In this document: positions 54,207 to 64,000 of the stretch, one piece after another
How the letters are laid out: each line of letters begins with the position of its first letter
How positions within the stretch are numbered: position 1 is the first letter of the stretch
Origin: Nitrospirota bacterium
GTDB taxonomy: Bacteria > Nitrospirota > Thermodesulfovibrionia > Thermodesulfovibrionales > JdFR-86
Assembly: GCA_016207905.1 (NCBI GenBank)
Contig: JACQZC010000045.1
Location: forward strand, 3,614 to 67,613
Length of the DNA: 64,000 bases
Direction of reading: 5' to 3'
Program-made: the position numbers and the translations under genes
The notes under the pieces: generated by a model
The model's input: only the letters and a program-made list of their open reading frames with translations
Database searches by the model: none
Told to the model about the DNA's origin: nothing

Positions 54207-55397
54207 ATGAAGGAACCCGTTAGCTTTTCCGCCTTTTATTTCAAAGACTTCAGGCTTTTCTGGGTAGGACAGATAGTATCGTATTCAGGCACATGGATGC
54301 ACTCAACTGCACAGGGCTGGCTTGTTTATTCCCTTACGAAGTCCCCTTTTTATCTTGGCATTGTGTCTGCGGCTGGCTCTCTGCCTGTGCTTTTTTTTAC
54401 CCTCGTAGGAGGGGTTGTCGCAGACAGGGTTGCAAAAAGGAATCTTCTTCTTCTGACCAGTGCCCTTTCAATGATTCCAGCAGTCCTGATAGGTGCACTG
54501 ACGAGCATAGAAATCATTAGTGTTTGGCATGTCATGGCACTGGCAGTGTTTTTAGGCACGGTTAATGCTTTTGATTTGCCTGCAAGACAGTCCTTTTTGG
54601 TCGAGATGGTGGAAAGGGGCAATCTCTTGAATGCAATAGCACTTAATTCAGCCGCATTTAATGGTGCAAGAATCATAGGTCCTATAATAGCAGGCATGAC
54701 CATTGCTTATATAGGGCTTCCTGCATGCTTTTACCTAAATGCCCTGAGCTTTGTTGCAGTCATCATTGCCCTTTCGATGATAAAGGCAAAGGGAGAAAAG
54801 AGGGAAACAAGAGGGCTTATGAAAGAACTGTGTGAGGGAATGAGGTTTGTAAAGGGAGAGCCTCAGGTTCGGAAGGTCATGCTTAGTGTAGCAGTCTTCA
54901 GCCTGTTTGCAATACCGTTTATAACGCTTCTTCCTGTGTTTGCAGAAGAGATATTGGATGTTGGCGTAAAGGGGCTTGGTTTTCTTTCGGGCTCAGCAGG
55001 TGGAGGTGCCTTTACAGCAGCCATGATGCTTGCATTTATAGGAGATATAAAAGAAAAGCAGAAACTGCAAAGGCTGACTACTATGCTTTTGCCAATCTCT
55101 TTGATTATATTTTCTCTTTCAAAAAACTACTATCTTTCGATGGCATCTCTGGTTGTTACGGGCTGGGCGGTTGTAACATTCTTAGCCATATCGAACAGCT
55201 ATATCCAGCTTAAAACCCCTGATGGCTTGAGGGGAAGGGTTATGAGCCTTTATACATTAGTGTTTTTAGGTATGGCTCCAATAGGAAACAGCTTAATTGG
55301 CATTGTGGCAGATATGTTTGGCTCTGCTATGGCAGTTACGGTTGGCTCAAGCATTTGTCTTTTAGCATCTGCAATTATAATGGGGAAAAGGACATGA
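54207..55397 (+). CDS. MFS transporter (EntS/MFS_3-like)
   Basis: 396 aa with about 12 TM helices and an N-terminal F..FRLFW.GQ..S..G.W pattern typical of this subfamily. Confidence 0.85.
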   Translation: MKEPVSFSAFYFKDFRLFWVGQIVSYSGTWMHSTAQGWLVYSLTKSPFYLGIVSAAGSLPVLFFTLVGGVVADRVAKRNLLLLTSALSMIPAVLIGALTSIEIISVWHVMALAVFLGTVNAFDLPARQSFLVEMVERGNLLNAIALNSAAFNGARIIGPIIAGMTIAYIGLPACFYLNALSFVAVIIALSMIKAKGEKRETRGLMKELCEGMRFVKGEPQVRKVMLSVAVFSLFAIPFITLLPVFAEEILDVGVKGLGFLSGSAGGGAFTAAMMLAFIGDIKEKQKLQRLTTMLLPISLIIFSLSKNYYLSMASLVVTGWAVVTFLAISNSYIQLKTPDGLRGRVMSLYTLVFLGMAPIGNSLIGIVADMFGSAMAVTVGSSICLLASAIIMGKRT

Positions 55398-56086
55398 AGG
55401 TGCTTGCCATAGAGACCTCGACAATGACAGGTGGAGCCGCTGTAATGGACGATGCTCAGGGCATTATCATGGAAGTGAGATTTACTGTCAGCGAAGGACA
55501 CTCAGAGAGGCTGATGGTTGAAATCGACCACTGCCTCAAAGAGGTAGGCATTACCGTTTCTGATATGGATGCCCTTTCAGTGTCCATTGGTCCGGGCTCT
55601 TTTACAGGGCTAAGAATAGGTCTGAGCACTGTAAAAGGCTTTTCGTATGCAACAGGCATTCCAGTAGTGGCAGTGCCGACATTGGAGGCATTTTCGTGGA
55701 ATTTTCCCATGAGCCCATACCCCGTGTGTCCGCTCCTCGATGCAAGGAAAAAAGAGGTCTATGCAGGTGTGTTTCTCTGGAACAAAGACGGATTCTGTAG
55801 AGCCCTTTCCGAGACATCCATAAAGATAAGGGAATTGACAGACCTTCTTAAAGAGCATGAAAGGGTTATGTTTGCAGGCCAAGGAGCCTTGCTTTATAAA
55901 AAGGAAATCTTAGAGGCACTCGGTGATAGGGCAATATTTCCCCCTCCTCATCTAAATGTCCCACTTGCTTCTGCCACAGCATACCTGGGGATGAAAAAGG
56001 CACTCTGTGGACAATTCGATAACCCCTTGACCCTGAGTCCCTTTTACCTAAGAAAGGCAGAGGCAGAGCTAAAGTTAATGTCCTGA
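55394..56086 (+). CDS. tsaB: tRNA threonylcarbamoyladenosine biosynthesis protein TsaB
   Basis: MKVLAIETST...GPGSFTGLRIGLSTVKG. The ATG at 55394 overlaps the MFS stop (ATGA). Confidence 0.9.
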   Translation: MKVLAIETSTMTGGAAVMDDAQGIIMEVRFTVSEGHSERLMVEIDHCLKEVGITVSDMDALSVSIGPGSFTGLRIGLSTVKGFSYATGIPVVAVPTLEAFSWNFPMSPYPVCPLLDARKKEVYAGVFLWNKDGFCRALSETSIKIRELTDLLKEHERVMFAGQGALLYKKEILEALGDRAIFPPPHLNVPLASATAYLGMKKALCGQFDNPLTLSPFYLRKAEAELKLMS

Positions 56087-56557
56087 ATGAGAGAAGTCAT
56101 CATCCAAAAGATGCAGAGACACCATATCTTAGAGATACTGGAGATAGAGAGATTGTCCTTCAGCACACCATGGTCAGAGGCATCTTTTTATAACGAGACA
56201 TATAACCCGAATTCGCTCTCGTATACAGCAGAATTGGAGTCAAATGTAGTAGGGTATATATGCGTAAGACATATTGCGGATGAAGCCCATATACTTAATC
56301 TTGCGGTCAGGCCTGACATGAGAAGGCAGGGTATAGCAAGGGCACTTGTCCTTAAAGCCCTCGAAGAGTTGAGTGAGACTCAATGTAAGACAGTATACCT
56401 TGAGGTCAGGGCCTCTAATTATCAAGCAAGGGCGCTTTATGAGTCATTTGGCTTTAAGGTTGTGGGGATAAGAAAATCCTATTATGAATTCCCAAAAGAG
56501 GATGCAGTTGTGATGGCTTTTAGCCTTTCCTCAAGGACATCTCAGTCATATCCTTGA
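56087..56557 (+). CDS. rimI: ribosomal-protein-alanine N-acetyltransferase
   Basis: GNAT fold (RRQGIARALV, VYLEVRASNYQARALYESFGF). The tsaB-rimI adjacency is conserved. Confidence 0.88.
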   Translation: MREVIIQKMQRHHILEILEIERLSFSTPWSEASFYNETYNPNSLSYTAELESNVVGYICVRHIADEAHILNLAVRPDMRRQGIARALVLKALEELSETQCKTVYLEVRASNYQARALYESFGFKVVGIRKSYYEFPKEDAVVMAFSLSSRTSQSYP

Positions 56558-56876
56558 GGATTCTTACAAAGCCCTCTTTGAGTTTCTTACTCCTTAGCTT
56601 TCTAAATTGGGTGAGGAGATTCGTTTCATCCTCGGTAAGATAAGGAGCATCGGGCTCAGCCACTCCGCTATCGTCGGGAATGAATGTGCTTACAGGAACA
56701 TTCAGGGCATCTGCTACCTGCCTTAGTCTTTTTATGGTAAGCTCCGATACGCCCTTTTCGTACTTCTGAACCTGCTGATAGGTAATGTTCATCTGTTCGG
56801 CAAGCTCCATCTGGGTCATGCCTGCTACCTTTCTTAGTCTTCTTATAAGATTTCCTATATCTTTTTTGGTAATCAT
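56520..56876 (-). CDS. XRE-family helix-turn-helix transcriptional regulator
   Basis: LRKVAGMTQMELAEQMNITYQQVQKYEKG is an HTH_3 motif. It overlaps the convergent rimI 3' end by 38 nt. Confidence 0.85.
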   Translation of the reverse strand: MITKKDIGNLIRRLRKVAGMTQMELAEQMNITYQQVQKYEKGVSELTIKRLRQVADALNVPVSTFIPDDSGVAEPDAPYLTEDETNLLTQFRKLRSKKLKEGFVRILKDMTEMSLRKG

Positions 56877-57063
56877 TTTCTAAATTTTTTTATTTATTTA
56901 TTATCTAAAATAACACCTTGCTTTTAAAAAAGCAACCATTAATTTCACAGCAGATGAATTATTAACGATTCAAGAAACATAAATCTACAATCCAAAGGTT
57001 GTGTTTTTAAAATACTTATACTTTAGGGTGTAGTCAGATACTACAATTTAAAATAGAAATATG

Positions 57064-57092
57064 TTGACATATACAATTTTAAGTAGTATAAG
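57064..57092 (+). promoter_or_regulatory. near-consensus sigma70 promoter abutting the start codon (candidate leaderless transcript)
   Basis: TTGACA (57064-57069), a 17-nt spacer, then TATAAG (57087-57092). The ATG at 57098 lies only 5 nt after the -10, and no SD is present. Confidence 0.55.
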
Positions 57093-57097
57093 TAAGC

Positions 57098-57460
57098 ATG
57101 AAGCAAAGTATTCTCATAATAGAGGGCAATGAGATTAAAAAGAAAATCCTTAAGGATTTTTTCTGGTTTTACGGCTACGATGCCCTGTGTGTGGACAGTA
57201 TAGATGAGGCAATCAGCTCATTGCAAACGAGGGGGTTTAGCCTCCTTATAGTTGACTATCATCTGTCGGGCATGAACTGGTCAGCCTTCATAGAGACGAT
57301 AAGGAGCACATATCCAAATATGCCAATAATAGGCATGTGTAGAAAGGAAGCGGAATTCCGCGATTTAGGCATAAGAAAGGTTATAAGTAGCCCTTTTGAC
57401 CTTAAGGGGCTTATGGATGAAGTAGGCTTCCTCCTTAATACTCCAAGACCCCATCCATAG
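57098..57460 (+). CDS. stand-alone receiver (REC) domain protein with degenerate active-site residues
   Basis: 120 aa with a CheY-like fold. The phospho-acceptor Asp is present (LLIVDYHL, D53), but the DD pair is EG, the conserved Thr/Ser position reads GMC, and the conserved Lys is Ser (ISSPF). Confidence 0.75.
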   Translation: MKQSILIIEGNEIKKKILKDFFWFYGYDALCVDSIDEAISSLQTRGFSLLIVDYHLSGMNWSAFIETIRSTYPNMPIIGMCRKEAEFRDLGIRKVISSPFDLKGLMDEVGFLLNTPRPHP

Positions 57461-58514
57461 GGGTTTTACATCTAAAGCAGGCTCCCTCTTTAATCCTGTT
57501 TTCGATTATGCTAAAGCCAAATCTTTTGATGAGAAGCTCTTTACACTTCGGGCAGTATGTGTTTTCACCTCCTTCTCCAGGGACATTTCCCTCATAAACA
57601 TATTTTAGTCCTGCCTCAAAACCCAATTGCCTTGCCCATCTTAATGTCTTAACAGGTGTGCGAGGCTTATCGGTTAATTTATATGTAGGATAAAACTGTG
57701 TCACATGCCATGGGATTGATGGGTCAACCGAGCTTATGAACTCGGCAATGTCCCTGAGCACTTTTTCTGAGTCGTTGTGGTCAGGGATTATGAGGGTTGT
57801 CACCTCAACCCACACTCCAAGCTCCTTCATGAGCTTGATGGTCTCTTTGACAGGCTCAACCTTAGCATGACATATCGATTTATAGAACTCATTGTCTCCT
57901 TTAAGGTCTATGTTATTTGCATCGAGATACTCTGCCGCAACCCTTGCAGACTCAGGTGTCATAAAGCCATTGCTTACAAAGACATTCTTGATTCCCTTTT
58001 CCCGTGCAAGCCTCATACAGTCATAGGCAAACTCGAAAAATATAGTTGGCTCCGTATAAGTATAAGAGATACTCTCACATTTGTATCTTTGGGCAAGCTC
58101 TACTACCTCCTCAGGCGTCATATCCTTTCCGGGTATTGGAACATCGGGGTTTTCCCTTGGATACTGTGAAATCTCATAGTTCTGGCAATGCTCGCACCTG
58201 AAGTTACAGCCAACCGTTGCAATAGAAAAAGAGCTTGACCCTGGAAGGAAATGAAAAAGGGGCTTTTTCTCTATGGGGTCTATGTTCATCGAGATGACCT
58301 TTCCATAGACAAGGCTATAAAGGGTTCCGTCTATATTTTCCCTTACATGGCATATGCCTCTTTTCCCAGGCTTTATTGTGCATCCATGTCCGCATAGAAA
58401 GCACCGAACCTTTCCATCTTCGAGCCTCTCATAAAACATTGCCTCTTTCATAGAAAGATTATAGCTTAGAACATTCCTCTTTTCATCTATTTTTTCTCCC
58501 TTCCACCCGCCCAA
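57435..58514 (-). CDS. AmmeMemoRadiSam-system-type radical SAM enzyme
   Basis: The radical SAM cluster motif CNFRCEHCQN, the N-terminal Cys-rich segment VRCFLCGHGC...GICHVR, and C-terminal CPKC...CFRC match this family. The likely true start is MKEAMFYE at 58451. Confidence 0.85.
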   Translation of the reverse strand: MGGWKGEKIDEKRNVLSYNLSMKEAMFYERLEDGKVRCFLCGHGCTIKPGKRGICHVRENIDGTLYSLVYGKVISMNIDPIEKKPLFHFLPGSSSFSIATVGCNFRCEHCQNYEISQYPRENPDVPIPGKDMTPEEVVELAQRYKCESISYTYTEPTIFFEFAYDCMRLAREKGIKNVFVSNGFMTPESARVAAEYLDANNIDLKGDNEFYKSICHAKVEPVKETIKLMKELGVWVEVTTLIIPDHNDSEKVLRDIAEFISSVDPSIPWHVTQFYPTYKLTDKPRTPVKTLRWARQLGFEAGLKYVYEGNVPGEGGENTYCPKCKELLIKRFGFSIIENRIKEGACFRCKTPMDGVLEY

Positions 58515-58562: not shown

Positions 58563-60743
58563 TCAAACCTGTCTCTTTATGCTCTCTGCAACCGAGCTTC
58601 CGATAGAAGGGACAGATGTTAGCGCATCGACCGATGCCTCTTTGATGTCTTTGATGCCCTTAAATCCTGCACCGAAGAGGCTTCTTGCCCTAACCCTTCC
58701 AATGCCTTTGAGGCTGACAAGCTCAAGAAGTTCTTCCTTGACACCATATGAAAGTCTGACCCTGAGCCTGTTTATATCCTTTACCTCTTCCTTAATGCCA
58801 AAGACCTTGCCTATCTCGCTTGAGGAATAAATGAGCCAATTGCTTAGCTCTACGAGGCTTCTCAGGTCTCCAGGGCCAATTCCAAAGTGGCTTGTTATTT
58901 TATCCTCAGGCATCTCAAGTATCCACTGCATGAGCAAGGATGCAGTCTTAAGTTGAGAGAGGCTCTCATCAGTGGGATATTCCTCTTTTTCTGAAATCAA
59001 AAGCTTATCCTGATGTGCATAGAAAACATCGAGCATCTCCTCATGGTCTTTCTTTCTAATCGTAAGCCTCATCATGTCAGGGGTGCGGGCTATAAGGTGA
59101 AACATGGGGAAAGCCTCTTTAGGCTTTGGCATACGAATACCATCCCGAATTATCACTGCACTCATTGGGTCTATGTAAAGCTCAGAGACCCTTTTTCCAA
59201 ACCTTGTTGCATGAAGCTCCTCTTTCACCGAAACCACCATGCCTTCTTCCGAAAGAAAATCCACTATGTCCTCTGCAATACCCATAAGGAAAGACACACC
59301 CCTTTGAAAGCCGGCAAATGTAGTGCCTAAGAATCCTTTAAGCTCTTTCGTTGTGCCTGTAAATCCACCTGCTATAGATGCAAGTATGTGAGTTCTAAGG
59401 GCTGATGGTGTTATAAGCTGTGAGAGGATTTTTTCGGGTCTGCCTTTTATATATTTTTCAAAAAGTCTTTGTTCGTCCCTGATACTTCGGGCTATAAGGA
59501 CAGTCTCTCCGTATTTATCGTATCCGGGTCTTCCTGCCCTTCCCGACATCTGTTTTATCTCGATAACTGGAATCGGCAGTTGACCTATGCCTGACTCATA
59601 CCTCAGCCAGTCCCTTATGATGACCCTTCTTGAGGGCAGGTTTAGTCCCATTGCGAGGGTTGTCGTTGAGGCTATGAGCTTTATCTTATTCTGCCTGAAT
59701 GCATCCTCTATGAGTTTTCTCTGGGTGTAGTTAATGCCTGCATGATGAAATGAAACACCTTTTGCAATCTGCTCTGAAAGTTTTCTACAAAGGTGCGTAG
59801 GCTCAGAGACCGCTGAAAGCACCTCCTCTGAAAGTTCCTTCAGTTCATCTGTCTTTTCTTTTTGGAGGATAGCGCCTACATACTCCGAGCACCTTCTTGA
59901 AACCGCCTCTGTCGATTTCCTTGTACTCACAAACACAATAGCCTGCCCCCCTTCCTTTATTGTCTCAAGTGAGAGGTCAACCACATCTATCCTACTTTCT
60001 TGAGGACAATGCCTGACAGTGCCATCACGAAACATTGTCTTTCCGTTATAGTAAACCCCTTCTTTTAGAGGAACAGGTCTCCAATCAGACTCTATGAGCC
60101 TTGCATTAAGCCACCTCGATATCTCATCTGCATTAGGGATTGTGGCACTCAGGGCTATAAGCCTTAAACAGGGGTTTATTGCCCTAAGACGGCTTAGGAC
60201 TATTTCGAGGGTAGGACCTCTACGGGAGTCTCCCATGAGGTGTATCTCGTCTGCTATGACCAATCCCACATCCTTTAGCCAGCCTGCATGATGCCTTATA
60301 AGGGAGTCAATCTTTTCGTTTGTTGCAATTATAAGGTCTGCACTGTGAAGCCATGGCTCTTCCCTGTCATAATCTCCTGTGCTTAAGGCAACCATCATGC
60401 CCAATGCCTTATATTTCTTTAAGAAGTCCTCGTATTTTTCCCTTGCCAATGCCCTCAAGGGCACAAGATATATTGTCTTTTGCCTTGCCTCGAGGAATAC
60501 CTTGAGTATTGACATCTCGGCTATAAGGGTCTTCCCAGAGGCAGTTGGCGCAGAGATGACAAACGACTCCTCTCCCTTAAGAAGTCCTGCCTGAATCGCC
60601 ATTTCCTGCGGAGGATAAAGCTCCTTAAGACCTGTTTCAGAAATGGCATCTATCAGCTCTCGAGAGCCACCATACTGCCTAATGTCATTTATATTCATAG
60701 GCTTAATTATCGCACATCCTGTTAGATTGTTGGCAATTTTCAC
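58563..60743 (-). CDS. Ski2-like superfamily 2 DNA helicase, archaeal Hel308/Hjm type
   Basis: Motif I APTASGKT, motif II DEIH, motif III SAT, motif VI QMSGRAGRPG, winged-helix/ratchet regions, and a C-terminal helix-hairpin-helix segment (LKGIGRVRARSL...VPSIGSSVAESI). The probable start is at 60698. Confidence 0.85.
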   Translation of the reverse strand: MKIANNLTGCAIIKPMNINDIRQYGGSRELIDAISETGLKELYPPQEMAIQAGLLKGEESFVISAPTASGKTLIAEMSILKVFLEARQKTIYLVPLRALAREKYEDFLKKYKALGMMVALSTGDYDREEPWLHSADLIIATNEKIDSLIRHHAGWLKDVGLVIADEIHLMGDSRRGPTLEIVLSRLRAINPCLRLIALSATIPNADEISRWLNARLIESDWRPVPLKEGVYYNGKTMFRDGTVRHCPQESRIDVVDLSLETIKEGGQAIVFVSTRKSTEAVSRRCSEYVGAILQKEKTDELKELSEEVLSAVSEPTHLCRKLSEQIAKGVSFHHAGINYTQRKLIEDAFRQNKIKLIASTTTLAMGLNLPSRRVIIRDWLRYESGIGQLPIPVIEIKQMSGRAGRPGYDKYGETVLIARSIRDEQRLFEKYIKGRPEKILSQLITPSALRTHILASIAGGFTGTTKELKGFLGTTFAGFQRGVSFLMGIAEDIVDFLSEEGMVVSVKEELHATRFGKRVSELYIDPMSAVIIRDGIRMPKPKEAFPMFHLIARTPDMMRLTIRKKDHEEMLDVFYAHQDKLLISEKEEYPTDESLSQLKTASLLMQWILEMPEDKITSHFGIGPGDLRSLVELSNWLIYSSSEIGKVFGIKEEVKDINRLRVRLSYGVKEELLELVSLKGIGRVRARSLFGAGFKGIKDIKEASVDALTSVPSIGSSVAESIKRQV

Positions 60744-61025: not shown

Positions 61026-61487
61026 TCAGAAGTCCTCGGCATTCCTTGTAACAATTCTTGTTTCATCATCGTTTAGTCCGTAAAGCCTGTAGACTATTTC
61101 ATCTATTAGGTTATCCGTGTTTTTGATTTTTGCCTTTAGTGGCTCAAGAACTGACATGCTTTTTGTGAAGTGCCTTTCAAAGAGTTCCTGAGTTTTTCTG
61201 TCAGAAGGGTCTATTGGGATGCTCCGTTTGTTCTTTTTAAGGATTTCAAGAAAATACTTAAAGTCATGCTCATGGTATTCCTTGATTGCTGTCTTATTTG
61301 ACAGGCTCTCAATCCCTACCTCTACCTCCCGCTCAAGCCATCTTAGAAAGTCCTTGATTTCCTCGTTCTTCTTTTTGTTCATTTCAATCATCTGCTCTGC
61401 AAGATAGGCAAGGAGGTCGTGAATGGTGTCATTCCTGTCGGCTTTAAGCTCCTCTGCCACCCATTTTATAGTATTATGAAAAATCAT
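61026..61487 (-). CDS. detached C-terminal module of the Eco57I/type IIG-like methyltransferase
   Basis: 153 aa. IHDLLAYLAEQMIEMNKKKNEEIKDFLRWLE...KKNKRSIPIDPSDRK...LEPLKAKIKNTDNLIDEIVYRLYGLNDDETRIV matches the C-terminal tail that, as I recall, is normally fused to these enzymes (...TDxLIDxxVYxLYGLTxEEIxIVE). Its ATG overlaps the upstream stop (ATGA). Confidence 0.7.
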   Translation of the reverse strand: MIFHNTIKWVAEELKADRNDTIHDLLAYLAEQMIEMNKKKNEEIKDFLRWLEREVEVGIESLSNKTAIKEYHEHDFKYFLEILKKNKRSIPIDPSDRKTQELFERHFTKSMSVLEPLKAKIKNTDNLIDEIVYRLYGLNDDETRIVTRNAEDF

Positions 61488-64000
61488 TTCTCTTTTTCCT
61501 TAAATGCCTTAGAAAGCCTTTTAACCCATATCTCTATAAGCTGTAATAGATTACCTGTGTCAGCCTCATGGAGTGCATTCAGGTATCTTTCTTTTTCCTC
61601 AGGTTCTACAGATGCTGTCTCAGCAGGCGGAAGTCTTAACTTGAAAAGTATTGCAGTTAATAGAATTCTTCCTACACGTCCATTGAAGTCCCTGAAAGGA
61701 TGAATCCACTGAAACCGCCAGTCTGCATAGGCAAGTGTCTCTGATATTTTTTCTATATCTTTTTCTTTTGAAGCAAATGATAATCTTACTGCTAAATCCT
61801 CACAATACAATCGCACAAGAACAGGCGCTTCATAAAAGGGTGGAGGGGTGTGTGTGCCTACTTTGACATTTACATCTCTGAACCTTCCTGCCCAGTCAGG
61901 GAAGAGCGAACCTGCTATATCATTATGAAGTTTGCAAATCCATTCAGAGGTAAAATATATATCTTCAGGAGAGGTTTCAATAATGGCTTCTATGGTTTTT
62001 GCAACTGATACCGCAAGGATTTCAGAGACTTCGGAATAAGTTTTTATCCCCTGTGCTGTCTCAAAATAGCGGGTTGAATTTAGCGGACGGGTGCTGTCTT
62101 GTCCTTCTTTAGGAGTTCCTTCAGACGGTTTATACTCACTGGCTCCTTCTCGAACTCCATGGACTTCACTACCCAGTCCAGAACCTTCTTCTGATACGCC
62201 TTCCGCAGGGACTTTATATCTGCGTGGTTTTTCTGCCACTCCTTGAAATCTTGTTGAGCCTTTCTTATCTCTGCCTTCGTCATCTTTGTCTCCCTTTTCT
62301 TTATTCTGCCATTTATCAGCATTTAAGGCAATAGTATTGATTTCTGTCTGATACAACCTTATAGCTTCAGAAACCCTTTTCTTTCGTTCCTTTTCAGGGG
62401 TGGTGAAGGAGATGCGGGGAATGGGGAAAGATTTAATGTCATCTGGATAGGTATGAAGTTGTCCCCCAATAAATGAAGTAAAATACCATCTGTTTAAAGA
62501 AGAGTTTATTATTGATAAACAAAAAGCGAGATTGTATTTTTCAGAAAGATTTTCATCTCCTTGAGAGATTTTTATCTTTCGAGAAGTTACATTTCTCAAG
62601 AGATATTTTGGCACTACAAGGCTAACAGTATGCTCAGTATAAAATCCATTCGTATCAAGTGAGGCCTGTACCCCGTTCTTACCAGTTACATCAGGTATAA
62701 TCAGTTTAGTATTCTCGAATAGTTCAGGAAACATTGGATTATAAAGTTCTTCGGGGCGGTAAAGTAAAAATTTTTTCCTCGGCGTAATCGAATATCGCCT
62801 TACATCTTCTCCATCTAACATTGGTTTAGCATCTTTTATCTGTCCATTATCTACCACATACTTTTTAATATTTCCACTTCTTGCACCCCAATTTGTGTAA
62901 CAAATTTGCCCCAGTCTTACTGACCTGCCGCCAATTTTATCTTTCAAATGAGAATAGGCATCGTTTATCTCTAAACGGAACATTTTATATGGTATTTTAC
63001 TTAATAATGCTGATGGAATATGATTTAGGTGTCCTTTAATTCCATGTAACCAAGGATCTTCTTCTTGATTCAGCACTGTTATTTCTGAAGGGCAACCACC
63101 TTTTCCAAAAAATAAAAGAATGTTTCGTACTGTAGCGTCAGGAAAGACCTTCCAGCCTGAAAGATTTACGATGTGTAATGGAGAACCATTTTGAAGTAAA
63201 AGATCTCTTACAGGTTCGCCATAGCGCTCATATAAAAAAGGGTACGGTATAATGAAACCAAACACTCCACTATTTGACAACAATTCGTAGCCTTGACCAA
63301 TAAAAGGAATATAGATATCAAATCTCCCCTTGACCAATTTAGAGATGTGTAATAAATAATCTCGGTTTTCCTTTGGTATATTCTCAACATTCACATAAGG
63401 CGGATTACCAATCACGCAATCAAATCCCGGGTTCTCTTTTTCCCCCCTCTCTGTGTAAAACACCTCCGGGAACTCTATCCTCCAGTGGAAAAACATTTTC
63501 TCTTTTGCAACCTGTAAAGCCTTTTTACATTTTTCCACTATTTCAGGATATGTCTCTTTTTCATATTCTAATGTATACGCAAGCTGGTCCACTCTGCTAT
63601 AACTTTCCCCCATATCCATAAAGTGCTTTGCCGTGGCTACATCAAGCCTTCTGCGAATTGGCTCTACTTCCTTTTGAGCAGAATTAAAAAGCTCATTGCT
63701 TTTTTTAGCCTCGGTTATAGTTGCATCCGTTAATTCTGAAACTTGTGTTACAAAAGATAAAGTGCGTTTCACTTTGGCAAAAGATTCCGTATCAGTAAAC
63801 TTCACTATGTCATCACTTGAAGTATCAAGAATTTTAGGTACTATAATAGATGAAATATCCAGCACCCCGATTAAGCTATTCCCGCATTTCAAATGATGGT
63901 CAAGGAATGAAAGTGGAGCTCCTAAAGTGAATGAGTCAAGCCATAAAGAAAGCTTTGCAAGCTCAACCGCCATATCATTAAGGTCAACGCCATAGATAAC
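61484..64000 (-). CDS. gamma-class N6-adenine DNA methyltransferase (Eco57I/type IIG- or PglX-like, with TaqI_C-type specificity domain) fused in frame to a C-terminal Fic domain; the 5' end lies beyond the window
   Basis: The frame is open to the window edge (VIYGVDLNDMAVELAKLSLWL...). Motifs are FHWRIEFPEVF, motif IV VIGNPPYV, TRD-like sequence ending FPIPRISFTTPEKERKK, a G/E/K-rich linker, then a Fic fold with HPFRDFNGRVGR at 61667-61702. Confidence 0.8.
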   Translation of the reverse strand, partial: VIYGVDLNDMAVELAKLSLWLDSFTLGAPLSFLDHHLKCGNSLIGVLDISSIIVPKILDTSSDDIVKFTDTESFAKVKRTLSFVTQVSELTDATITEAKKSNELFNSAQKEVEPIRRRLDVATAKHFMDMGESYSRVDQLAYTLEYEKETYPEIVEKCKKALQVAKEKMFFHWRIEFPEVFYTERGEKENPGFDCVIGNPPYVNVENIPKENRDYLLHISKLVKGRFDIYIPFIGQGYELLSNSGVFGFIIPYPFLYERYGEPVRDLLLQNGSPLHIVNLSGWKVFPDATVRNILLFFGKGGCPSEITVLNQEEDPWLHGIKGHLNHIPSALLSKIPYKMFRLEINDAYSHLKDKIGGRSVRLGQICYTNWGARSGNIKKYVVDNGQIKDAKPMLDGEDVRRYSITPRKKFLLYRPEELYNPMFPELFENTKLIIPDVTGKNGVQASLDTNGFYTEHTVSLVVPKYLLRNVTSRKIKISQGDENLSEKYNLAFCLSIINSSLNRWYFTSFIGGQLHTYPDDIKSFPIPRISFTTPEKERKKRVSEAIRLYQTEINTIALNADKWQNKEKGDKDDEGRDKKGSTRFQGVAEKPRRYKVPAEGVSEEGSGLGSEVHGVREGASEYKPSEGTPKEGQDSTRPLNSTRYFETAQGIKTYSEVSEILAVSVAKTIEAIIETSPEDIYFTSEWICKLHNDIAGSLFPDWAGRFRDVNVKVGTHTPPPFYEAPVLVRLYCEDLAVRLSFASKEKDIEKISETLAYADWRFQWIHPFRDFNGRVGRILLTAILFKLRLPPAETASVEPEEKERYLNALHEADTGNLLQLIEIWVKRLSKAFKEKEK
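62080..62283 (-). CDS. embedded alternative-frame ORF (67 aa), candidate Fic-associated antitoxin or N-terminal Fic segment
   Basis: GGGAG (62294-62290) lies 6 nt upstream of the ATG at 62283. The product MTKAEIRKAQQDFKEWQKNHADIKSLRKAYQKKVLDWVVKSMEFEKEPVSINRLKELLKKDKTAPVR looks helical and protein-like, whereas the main frame here is low-complexity. It ends immediately 5' of the Fic domain. Confidence 0.4.
   Translation of the reverse strand: MTKAEIRKAQQDFKEWQKNHADIKSLRKAYQKKVLDWVVKSMEFEKEPVSINRLKELLKKDKTAPVR

Follow-up and report, generated by a model that had tools for sequence, protein, structure and literature searches.

The window, by which we mean the whole 64,000-nt stretch of Nitrospirota DNA that was analysed, ends in a long minus-strand reading frame (the main ORF) that joins a DNA methylase to a Fic domain. 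Within it, in another frame, lies an ORF of 67 codons (the small ORF), and a further ORF (the tail ORF) follows its stop. The features of the locus are the following.

61484..64000, minus strand: main ORF, with Eco57I-type N6-adenine methylase, TaqI_C specificity domain, 82-aa linker and Fic; its 5' end lies beyond the window
61487..62341, minus strand: inserted cassette (linker/small ORF plus Fic), interrupting the restriction-modification (RM) gene between ...RLYQTE and the tail (M)IFHNTIKWVAEEL
62096..62341, minus strand: main-frame linker, 82 aa (INTIALNADKWQNK...PKEGQD), rich in G/E/K/D/S, predicted disordered
62290..62294, minus strand: Shine-Dalgarno-like GGGAG, with a 6-nt spacer to the small-ORF ATG
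62080..62283, minus strand: small ORF, 67 aa plus TAA, embedded within the main ORF in another frame; product MTKAEIRKAQQDFKEWQKNHADIKSLRKAYQKKVLDWVVKSMEFEKEPVSINRLKELLKKDKTAPVR
62146..62163, minus strand: SMEFEK (S41 to E45, K46), corresponding to the inhibitory motif (S/T)xxxE(G/N) of Fic proteins
61487..62095, minus strand: main-frame Fic module (STRPLNSTRYFETAQG... to ...KAFKEKEK), overlapping the last four codons of the small ORF with its own first four
61667..61702, minus strand: Fic active-site motif HPFRDFNGRVGR, with F where HxFx(D/E)(G/A)N(G/K)RxxR has G or A
61026..61487, minus strand: tail ORF, 153 aa, carrying the severed C-terminus (~140 residues) of the type IIG enzyme

The interrupted restriction-modification gene

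From its first ATG the main ORF covers 61484..63973, and in the ORF list it is open up to the window edge at 64000; its stop is the TGA at 61486-61484. Its Pfam matches are Eco57I (2.5e-36), TaqI_C (1.4e-10) and Fic (1.3e-12), and PADLOC assigns the methylase part to REase_MTase_IIG and DrmMI, and the Fic part to PDC-S04 and SoFic. With respect to the make-up of type IIG enzymes, Eco57I and TaqI_C are both present in the host gene, and its N-terminus lies beyond the window edge at 64000; in homologous loci, frames of about 1200 codons are found upstream of the cassette, and relatives carry HSDR_N. The main frame is fused to an 1100-aa methylase in many loci.

Two homologues of the host gene, P0151 (1302 aa) and P0149, are uninterrupted, reading ISFTT..KERKK....LY......YEDI..W...E....RNDT.HDFLA.LAEQMIE with the cassette absent, and alignment with them shows the cassette as an insertion in an RM gene. 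The tail ORF matches the extreme C-terminus of many proteins of 1250-1365 aa, such as residues 1158-1298 of P0151 and 1200-1343 of P0156. Its ATG overlaps the Fic stop (ATGA, 61487-61484), and a 4-nt ATGA/GTGA overlap is also seen in other loci. The host gene is probably expressed as a Fic-tagged N-terminal part and a separate tail, with translation of the tail coupled.

Two open frames over one segment

A sequence-only reading of this DNA had pointed out that the main frame and a second minus-strand frame are both open over 62080-62322, and direct reading of the ORFs and the sequence agrees. The main frame runs through the segment as ...NADKWQNKEKGDKDDEGRDKKGSTRFQGVAEKPRRYKVPAEGVSEEGSGLGSEVHGVREGASEYKPSEGTPKEGQD-STRP..., while the second is open over exactly 62080..62322 (80 aa from its first ATG). 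With the small ORF as reference the main frame is -1 (conversely, the small ORF is +1 to the main ORF), and the third same-strand frame carries 9 stops over the segment. When the 67-aa protein of the window was re-encoded with synonymous codons at Fic-domain codon usage, none of 500 draws left the main frame open; at the T-poor usage of the small ORF itself, 7% did. Across loci, 4.9 main-frame stops are expected under Fic codon usage (P(open) 0.003) and 2.1 under small-ORF usage (P(open) 0.10), and 40 of the 43 distinct homologous loci actually have an open main frame. An opening of both frames on this scale far exceeds chance.

The small ORF starts with the ATG at 62283-62281, stops with the TAA at 62082-62080 and encodes a product beginning MTKAEIRK; the earlier description of an ATG-started 67-aa ORF with GGGAG 6 nt upstream was correct. 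A Shine-Dalgarno-like 4-mer is present at -17..-4 in 41 of 43 homologous loci, as against 44% of equivalent windows within the overlap, the ATG is conserved in 39 of 43 distinct loci, and the length is mostly exactly 67 codons. There are 28 protein homologues (E 1e-26 to 1e-12), mostly of 67 aa, and a DNA search finds 96 loci with a homologue of the small ORF, mostly in MAGs of Nitrospirota, Thermodesulfovibrionia and Nitrospinota. Over homologous loci its dN/dS is 0.18, and diversity at codon positions 1/2/3 is 0.11/0.12/0.32 (codons 23-56), peaking at its own third positions. It is intact in all 42 Fic-bearing loci and in all 21 that have lost Fic, examples of the latter being L002, where it adjoins an AAA_15/DUF3696 ATPase, and L019, in which the tail follows the methylase and Fic is missing. 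Judged by this pattern of substitution, the small ORF is a real conserved gene under protein-level purifying selection. A scan for sigma-70 promoters found no site just upstream of it, with counts equal to the shuffled expectation, and internal initiation on the long mRNA is therefore assumed. In database annotation, the leader frame is included in about 110 of 120 Fic entries; the small ORF is as a rule annotated only at loci with a broken Fic.

It could be argued that the second frame is open by chance in purine-rich, T-poor DNA, as the sequence-only reading had allowed, or that it reflects an assembly indel. The coding strand of the overlap is indeed purine-rich (A 94, G 70, C 42 and T 37 of 243), and the frame switches in a few single contigs (P0022, P0028, P0032). 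However, the constraint on the ORF is of protein type across about 100 independent assemblies, the T-poverty is context-specific, and about 8 stops interrupt the +1 frame of the very same DNA. Retention of the ORF in about 100 homologous loci refutes a chance origin, and the recurrence of the arrangement in dozens of independent assemblies excludes a sequencing error; the probability we leave to either explanation is negligible.

In the main frame, the same DNA encodes the linker, which contains the stretch GSTRFQGVAEKPR. AlphaFold gave residues 1-86 of linker plus Fic a pLDDT of 24-44 and no secondary structure (51-sequence alignment); modelling the actual main-frame product yields a disordered leader and a Fic core that is less confident than in a chimera of the small-ORF product with Fic (alt+Fic). 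Main-frame dN/dS over the overlap is 1.17, compared with 1.12 for the untranslated, closed +1 frame. The comparison of synonymous and non-synonymous change in both frames that had been proposed earlier thus gives, over more than 40 loci, 0.18 for the small ORF and 1.17 for the main frame.

Despite this freedom of sequence, T occurs at only 5 of 581 small-ORF third positions where it would create a main-frame stop, versus 324 of 1000 elsewhere; in a Fic-only control, the corresponding figures are 36% and 43%. The cleanest contrast is that of T before AA/AG (2/365) with T before AC/AT (92/154), and 13 of the 16 stop-making columns vary among A, C and G, never T. T is also scarce before GG/GC/GT (7/212, a class of few columns only), and stop avoidance thus leaves part of the T depletion unaccounted for. 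Synonymous divergence in the small ORF is half that in Fic (0.87 versus 1.66). These patterns indicate that over the overlap the main frame is without amino-acid constraint, yet actively kept open. Avoiding stops along the linker frame would serve no purpose unless translation passed through the linker to Fic. In stand-alone loci, a main-frame ATG is conserved 43 nt upstream of the small-ORF ATG.

Main-frame stops are found in three of the 43 loci (L036 and the related pair L088/L090), where the small ORF and Fic are intact; these loci may be recent pseudogenes, or may express Fic in another way. Decay of the linker frame after loss of Fic was expected: the main frame is open in 18 of 21 Fic-less loci, and the difference in stops (3/21 Fic-less versus 3/42 Fic-bearing) is not significant. 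Taken at the level of substitution patterns, selection is shown on both frames over the shared DNA, and genuine dual coding, one of three options in the sequence-only reading, is supported by the dN/dS of 0.18 and third-position periodicity in the small frame together with T avoidance at stop-making sites of the main frame.

The Fic module and the 67-residue protein

The Fic module scores 48.9 bits with the profile of the Fic/DOC superfamily (PF02661; gathering score 24, E 1.3e-12), and the structural matches are all Fic proteins. By tblastn it has matches of 60-84% identity in about 50 loci; every match begins 12 nt ahead of the small-ORF stop and lies in the frame that is -1 to the small ORF. 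Codon periodicity passes to the main frame at about small-ORF codon 63. The claim that the small ORF ends immediately 5' of Fic is therefore true of the conserved N-terminus of the module (STRPLNSTRYFETAQG...), which begins 12 nt before that stop, but not of the Pfam core, which lies ~40 residues past it. The domain has a dN/dS of 0.135 over about 190 codons, with normal third-position periodicity, in more than 40 loci. In the sequence read directly, no ATG, GTG or TTG of its own follows the small-ORF stop, and Fic therefore needs an upstream frame.

Of the canonical AMPylation motif HxFx(D/E)GNGRxxR, the Fic module has the H, F, D, N, G, R and R, with F replacing a G, and the form HPF(R/K)DFNGRxGR is invariant across the clade (alignments A2 and A4). 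With F at the G/A position, both the chemistry and the mode of inhibition may therefore differ from those of AMPylating Fic enzymes.

One alternative is that function is confined to the small ORF, whose product would be an orphan antitoxin or have some other role, and that Fic and the linker frame are decaying remnants. This would fit with the intact small ORF in all 21 loci with a deleted or truncated Fic, but not with the dN/dS, periodicity and invariant active-site motif of Fic in more than 40 loci, with the intact Fic ORF of the window, or with stop avoidance in the linker frame, and we regard it as very improbable.

A second alternative, to which we also assign a low probability, is programmed -1 ribosomal frameshifting or transcriptional slippage, in which translation starts at the small-ORF ATG and a fraction slips near codons 55-63, giving the 67-aa protein plus a class II-like fusion of the inhibitory helix (alpha-inh) to Fic, the linker not being the route to Fic. 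The lack of a start codon in Fic, its constant -1 frame and its beginning 12 nt before the small-ORF stop would all suit such a mechanism, the fusion product would be viable, as relatives with both parts in frame show, and L036, L088 and L090 retain the small ORF and Fic despite a closed main frame. However, a canonical X XXY YYZ heptamer is present in none of the 43 loci (small-ORF codons 33-67), and A AAG, seen at codons 55, 60 or 62 in about 10 of 43 loci each, is conserved at no site; we have downgraded frameshifting for the want of such a conserved heptamer or A AAG site. Moreover, avoidance of -1-frame stops spans the whole 200 nt, including a 5' part that frameshifting would not need, many loci join the frame to the 1100-aa methylase, and stand-alone loci conserve the upstream main-frame ATG. 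The earlier suggestion of a Fic gene carrying or using a frameshift thus fails as a present mechanism, given the conservation of the arrangement in dozens of independent assemblies and the lack of a conserved slippery heptamer, and survives as history, as P0115 and P0143 have the two parts in one frame.

In these two proteins (266 and 265 aa), a single frame covers 97-98% of the alt+Fic chimera, with the motifs SMTFEN and SMAFEN. The two-frame layout is also found in a deeper sister clade, represented by L102 and L104, with SMAFEN in the small ORF. In a crude neighbour-joining tree the two in-frame proteins fall separately inside the two-frame clade, which suggests secondary re-fusion.

The 67-aa protein has no meaningful match in Pfam, NCBIfam or PADLOC, and therefore no known antitoxin family can be assigned to it by sequence. 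The SMEFEK that had been picked out in it stands at 62163-62146 and is nearly invariant in alignment A1, with K, R or Q as the last residue across the subfamily; relative to (S/T)xxxE(G/N), the window's small ORF has the S and the E, and ends in K. Profile alignment pairs SMEFEK with TVAIEG of FICD, and E45 with FICD E234. An artificial fusion of alt(1-62) to Fic is modelled by AlphaFold with a pLDDT of 92.4 and a pTM of 0.91; the best structural match of this model is FICD (TM 0.76 over 258 of 265 columns), and VbhT/VbhA (3shg) and EcFicT/FicA (5jff) are also among its matches. These alignments and models show the 67-aa protein as a homologue of the N-terminal alpha-inh module of class II Fic, and they support its candidacy as the antitoxin of the Fic domain that it overlaps. 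The proposal of a VbhA-type antitoxin needs refining: the role is supported by the SMEFEK/TVAIEG alignment and the SMAFEN orthologues, and the protein is no detectable relative of VbhA.

Fic classes were assigned by the definitions summarised in PMC5651007. As in class I, the predicted inhibitory helix is on a separate small protein, whose conserved ORF of 67 codons has an SD and an ATG of its own and stops ahead of the Fic core. The class II arrangement, helix and core in one polypeptide, is found in P0115 and P0143 only; in the window and at least 40 loci, module and core are in different frames with a stop between, so one chain is impossible without recoding.

A proposed split Fic pair compared with known systems

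We propose, with a probability of roughly three in four, that the region is a dual-coding segment with a split Fic toxin/antitoxin pair. Its ancestor would have been a class II Fic carrying the N-terminal inhibitory helix and the core on a single chain, which a frame change then divided. The N-terminal module would have kept the ancestral frame and would survive as the independent 67-aa gene with its own Shine-Dalgarno sequence and ATG, and the Fic core, now in the -1 frame, would be reached by translating the same DNA as a structureless leader, which in the window would serve as the linker fusing Fic to the C-terminal side of the type IIG RM enzyme. We infer that both are translated from one mRNA, the methylase-linker-Fic protein from an upstream start and the 67-aa protein by internal initiation. 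The latter would bind the Fic core in trans and complete its fold, placing Glu45 of SMEFEK in the ATP gamma-phosphate site like the alpha-inh glutamate in FICD or VbhA, and so keep Fic silent. As the antitoxin start is inside the toxin reading frame, the antitoxin:toxin ratio would be set by translation, and a drop in the small protein would presumably be the physiological trigger that frees the Fic tethered to the restriction enzyme.

In bacteria, very few long overlaps of same-strand genes in different frames are backed by solid evidence for selection on both, and gene callers miss such overlaps. Here, the likely function of the hidden gene can be read from homology, as the inhibitory module of the very enzyme it overlaps. 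The locus would be a natural example of a cis-inhibited class II Fic turned into a two-component, class I-like pair by a frame change, and an instance of overprinting whose new frame encodes a disordered linker. It follows that annotated genes alone are insufficient for inferring Fic regulation. The restriction-enzyme fusion with an antitoxin in its linker is also a testable design for coupling restriction to a toxin.

More speculatively, and with doubts that outweigh our confidence, linker, small ORF and Fic could be a self-contained cassette spreading among type IIG RM genes, by insertion or recombination, at one fixed site ~140 codons before the 3' end. Fic would be tethered to the enzyme and the overprinted antitoxin would act as a translation sensor: when translation is disturbed, by phage takeover or gene loss, the short-lived 67-aa protein would fall and Fic would fire. 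If so, the cassette would add an abortive-infection or addiction layer to restriction, and would represent a new toxin-antitoxin regulatory logic, with the antitoxin within the toxin's codons, and a fourth way to supply alpha-inh to Fic.

In the literature we found no description of an out-of-frame embedded Fic antitoxin, nor of methylase-Fic fusions of this kind; the closest case is that of two small ORFs partially overlapping fic3 and fic4 in Campylobacter fetus.

The host gene resembles type IIG RM enzymes of the Eco57I/MmeI kind and the DISARM methylase DrmMI in its Eco57I and TaqI_C domains and its PADLOC matches, and the tail ORF corresponds to the C-terminus of type IIG enzymes of ~1300 aa. 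Unlike usual type IIG enzymes, it is broken by the Fic cassette ~140 residues before its end.

As in the class I pairs (VbhT/VbhA of Bartonella; FicT/FicA of E. coli and others), a Ser...Glu inhibitory helix is proposed to act in trans from a small protein encoded 5' on the same transcript. In class I pairs, however, the antitoxin gene is upstream of or abuts the toxin gene, whereas here it is wholly inside the toxin ORF in another frame, and the 67-aa protein, with no detectable VbhA/FicA homology and a motif ending in K, corresponds to the four-helix N-terminal module of class II Fic. With class II Fic (FICD/HYPE, C. elegans FIC-1, SoFic, CdFic) the locus shares the predicted fold, that of the small protein plus Fic core being like FICD's, and the close relatives P0115 and P0143 are ordinary class II proteins. 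The window pair departs from class II in having module and core in separate frames, and F at the G/A position of the motif.

Out-of-frame embedded genes are known from comS inside srfA in Bacillus subtilis and from overprinted phage and viral genes. As in such overlaps, a short same-strand ORF with its own ribosome-binding site lies within a far longer ORF, and one frame encodes a structured protein and the other a low-complexity, disordered stretch. Unlike in these cases, a single ancestral protein appears to have yielded the two products here as its halves, with binding between them predicted, and the frame that looks new is the linker of the long gene, not the small gene.

Two reading frames between a methylase and a Fic domain

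Re-reading the minus strand confirmed the description, made in the sequence-only reading, of two frames open over 62080-62322. The main ORF encodes, by Pfam, an Eco57I-type methylase and a TaqI_C specificity domain, with a Fic domain at its C-terminus; it occupies the -1 frame with respect to the small ORF embedded in its linker, and the remaining frame carries 9 stops. The features are as follows:

beyond the window edge (64000) to the TGA at 61486-61484, minus strand: main ORF (ORF listing)
62341-62096, minus strand: linker of 82 residues, rich in G, E, K, D and S, between TaqI_C and Fic
62080-62322, minus strand: second open frame, overlapping the main frame
ATG at 62283, stop at 62082-62080, minus strand: small ORF of 67 residues, with GGGAG and a 6-nt spacer before the conserved start
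61487-61026, minus strand: tail ORF of 153 aa, directly after Fic, with an ATGA overlap with the Fic stop
58563-60743, minus strand: Hel308-like helicase of 726 aa (domains DEAD, Helicase_C, Archaeal helicase domain 4 and HHH), immediately downstream of the restriction-Fic locus and sharing its strand
57435-58514, minus strand: radical SAM enzyme (Pfam)
57098-57460, plus strand: response-regulator receiver (Pfam)
56520-56876, minus strand: XRE-type HTH protein (Pfam)

The neighbours at 54207-58514 have the appearance of ordinary housekeeping and regulatory genes, and the ORFs at 54207-56557 presumably encode, by the look of their sequence, a membrane transporter, a TsaB-like protein and a RimI-like acetyltransferase.

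The tail ORF aligns with the final ~140 residues of many proteins of 1250-1365 aa, and is the C-terminus, now detached, of a type IIG/Eco57I-like enzyme of ~1300 aa. In relatives that lack the interruption, ...ISFTT..KERKK....LY......YEDI..W...E....RNDT.HDFLA.LAEQMIE... is read without a break, and the window has 855 nt (62341-61487) inserted after RLYQTE(I) and before (M)IFHNTIKWVAEEL. An ATGA or GTGA overlap at the tail start is seen again in other loci, and this recurrence suggests that the two parts of the split restriction-modification gene are translationally coupled. The motif AATACTAT, followed closely by AAATGG..GCAG, stands at both borders of this cassette (62338-62331 and 61475-61468, minus strand), and may represent a target-site duplication or a coincidence; at other loci, border similarity is weakly visible, at the protein level alone (EI..IA.NADKW versus FQET..W). 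Host enzymes across loci are 26-50% identical to that of the window, as against 57-84% for the small ORF, Fic and tail, a contrast that could reflect swapping of the cassette among genes, or an old insertion in enzymes whose specificity domains evolve fast. In PADLOC, the methylase is related to type IIG enzymes and DrmMI; the Fic part is related to SoFic and to PDC-S04, a candidate defence family.

Constraint on the two overlapping frames

A protein search returned 28 homologues of the small protein (E 4e-26 to 3e-12), mostly of exactly 67 aa, in which LDWVVKSMEFEKEPVS..RLKELL is near-invariant. A further 96 loci, mostly in Nitrospirota, Thermodesulfovibrionia and Nitrospinota MAGs, came from pattern scans over genomic and metagenomic contigs. 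Among the 43 distinct loci that also carry Fic, on which the start, SD and diversity statistics are based, 39 have an ATG start for the small ORF, and 41 have an SD-like 4-mer at -17..-4 (background within the overlap, 44%). Nucleotide diversity at small-ORF codon positions 1/2/3 is 0.11/0.12/0.32 (codons 23-56), which is the coding periodicity of the small frame; downstream in Fic it is 0.23/0.15/0.54 at main-frame positions 1/2/3, and the periodicity passes from one frame to the other at about codon 63. A chance open frame, one of three explanations offered from sequence inspection, is excluded by these homologous loci and by the periodicity.

By Nei-Gojobori estimates, dN/dS is 0.18 for the small ORF, versus 1.17 for the main frame and 1.12 for the closed +1 frame over the same DNA; for the Fic domain it is 0.135. 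The proposed comparison of synonymous and non-synonymous change thus places amino-acid constraint in the small ORF and none in the main frame, and the small frame is therefore the carrier of amino-acid information.

The main frame is nonetheless open in 40 of the 43 loci. When the small protein of each locus was re-encoded with synonymous codons, the -1 frame was open in 0.3% of draws under Fic-domain codon usage (4.9 stops expected) and in 10% under the small ORF's own usage (2.1 stops expected). Third-position T is at 11% in the small ORF versus 31% in Fic, and the small-ORF depletion depends on context: a synonymous T that would create a main-frame TAA, TAG or TGA occurs in 5/581 cases, and T elsewhere in the small ORF in 324/1000. 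The five stop-making Ts are the stops of three loci (L036, L088 and L090). In a Fic-only control, T stood at 36% of stop-context positions versus 43% of others. The cleanest contrast is T before AA/AG (2/365) versus T before AC/AT (92/154). T is scarce before GG/GC/GT too (7/212), a class with few columns, of which two are already constrained by Fic coding. In 13 of 16 well-populated columns where T would be dangerous, the base changes among A, C and G and is never T; Tyr30 is TAT before a harmless next codon and TAC otherwise. Synonymous divergence is 0.87 in the small ORF, roughly half of the 1.66 seen in Fic. The argument is carried by effect size and by the recurrent changes to A, C and G rather than by raw P-values, which overstate independence among loci related by descent. 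The main frame is thus held open by selection although it is without amino-acid constraint, and the pattern supports genuine dual coding, another of the explanations offered.

Routes to Fic and loci that have lost it

The conserved N-terminus of the Fic module (STRPLNSTRYFE..., main frame) begins 12 nt before the small-ORF stop, and downstream of that stop the window sequence offers Fic neither an ATG nor a GTG or TTG in frame. In about one third of loci, the window included, the main frame extends ~1200 codons upstream into the Eco57I-type enzyme, and in the remaining loci it has an ATG at least 43 nt upstream of the small-ORF ATG (IAMKTNKCQNK...). This leader is homologous to IALNADKWQNK of the window, and in sequence the stand-alone genes resemble the methylase-Fic fusion after trimming. 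A canonical slippery heptamer near the junction is absent from every locus scanned, and no promoter-like site was found ahead of the small ORF. From all this we infer that a single mRNA with two initiation sites would give rise to two products. In L036 (stop at +164) and the L088/L090 pair (stops at +44 and +131 from the small-ORF ATG) the linker frame is closed, yet these stops leave both the small ORF and the Fic frame of ~200 codons undamaged; Fic in these loci may be a young pseudogene, or may be reached by another route, for example frameshifting.

Fic is deleted or truncated in 21 distinct loci (L002, L013, L019, L020, L023, L025, L057, L064-L069, L073-L076, L082, L089, L091 and L095); every one of them retains an intact small ORF, and 18 still have an open linker frame. 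These small ORFs may be orphan antitoxins. That of L002 adjoins an AAA_15/AAA_21/DUF3696 ATPase gene. Three database proteins called from single metagenome contigs change frame, P0028 from leader to small ORF, and P0022 and P0032 from small ORF to Fic, P0032 being a 222-aa in-frame fusion with its switch at LLEK|GEDSTRP; the switches may stem from natural re-fusion, from indels or from errors in sequencing.

Identity of the small protein and relation to known Fic systems

A chimera query joining small-ORF residues 1-62 to the Fic module matched 356 proteins, nearly all of which start with the main-frame leader (...VHGVREG..EY...). P0115 (266 aa) and the Nitrospira sp. protein P0143 (265 aa) each align, within one frame, to 97-98% of the chimera, and their motifs, SMTFEN and SMAFEN, are canonical forms of the inhibitory (S/T)xxxE(G/N) motif, which is summarised with Fic classes I-III in PMC5651007. 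Their loci (L100 and L101, respectively) hold stand-alone single-frame genes for Fic with its inhibitory helix (alpha-inh), in unrelated neighbourhoods. L100 retains an open -1 frame over the N-terminal module; in L101 that frame is stopped, and the junction has diverged. In a crude NJ tree the two proteins fall separately within the two-frame clade, and this placement, together with the difference in the -1 frame, suggests occasional re-fusions of different ages. A frameshifted Fic gene, the remaining explanation, thus holds as an evolutionary origin, given these single-frame proteins, and fails as a defect. Outside the clade, the ancestral state is class II, judging by fold.

In a deeper Fic clade (~55% identity; L102 and L104) the two-frame layout is found again: the small ORF carries SMAFEN, and Fic follows a leader in the -1 frame. 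At L104 3861-4150 the small-ORF frame continues unstopped from the methylase tail end (YGLTEEEIKIVE...), with no obvious ATG. The family profile places SMEFEK over TVAIEG of human FICD, making E45 the counterpart of FICD E234. AlphaFold modelled the chimera with a mean pLDDT of 92.4 and pTM of 0.91, versus 63.9 and 0.60 for the actual main-frame product (linker plus Fic; 51-sequence alignment), in which residues 1-86 have pLDDT 24-44 and lack secondary structure and the Fic core is weaker (~85). Taken together, the single-frame relatives, the profile alignment and the models argue that the 67-aa protein is an alpha-inh module split off from the N-terminus of a class II-type Fic, with the linker modelled as a structureless reading of the same DNA.

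Characterised Fic/Doc enzymes have Gly or Ala at a position of the active-site motif where HPFRDFNGRVGR (61667-61702, minus strand) has Phe; HPF(R/K)DFNGRxGR, Phe included, is invariant throughout the clade. The final K of SMEFEK likewise departs from the consensus G/N, and these two departures suggest that the chemistry may be other than plain AMPylation.

The locus is thus predicted to encode a Fic toxin and a trans-acting alpha-inh antitoxin. No prior description of this overprinted architecture was found in the literature searched, and an antitoxin overprinted within the toxin's reading frame, there itself a linker to a restriction enzyme, appears to be new. In structure, the best PDB matches of the chimera model are FICD/HYPE chains (TM 0.76, 258/265 columns), with VbhT/VbhA and EcFicT/FicA ranking lower.
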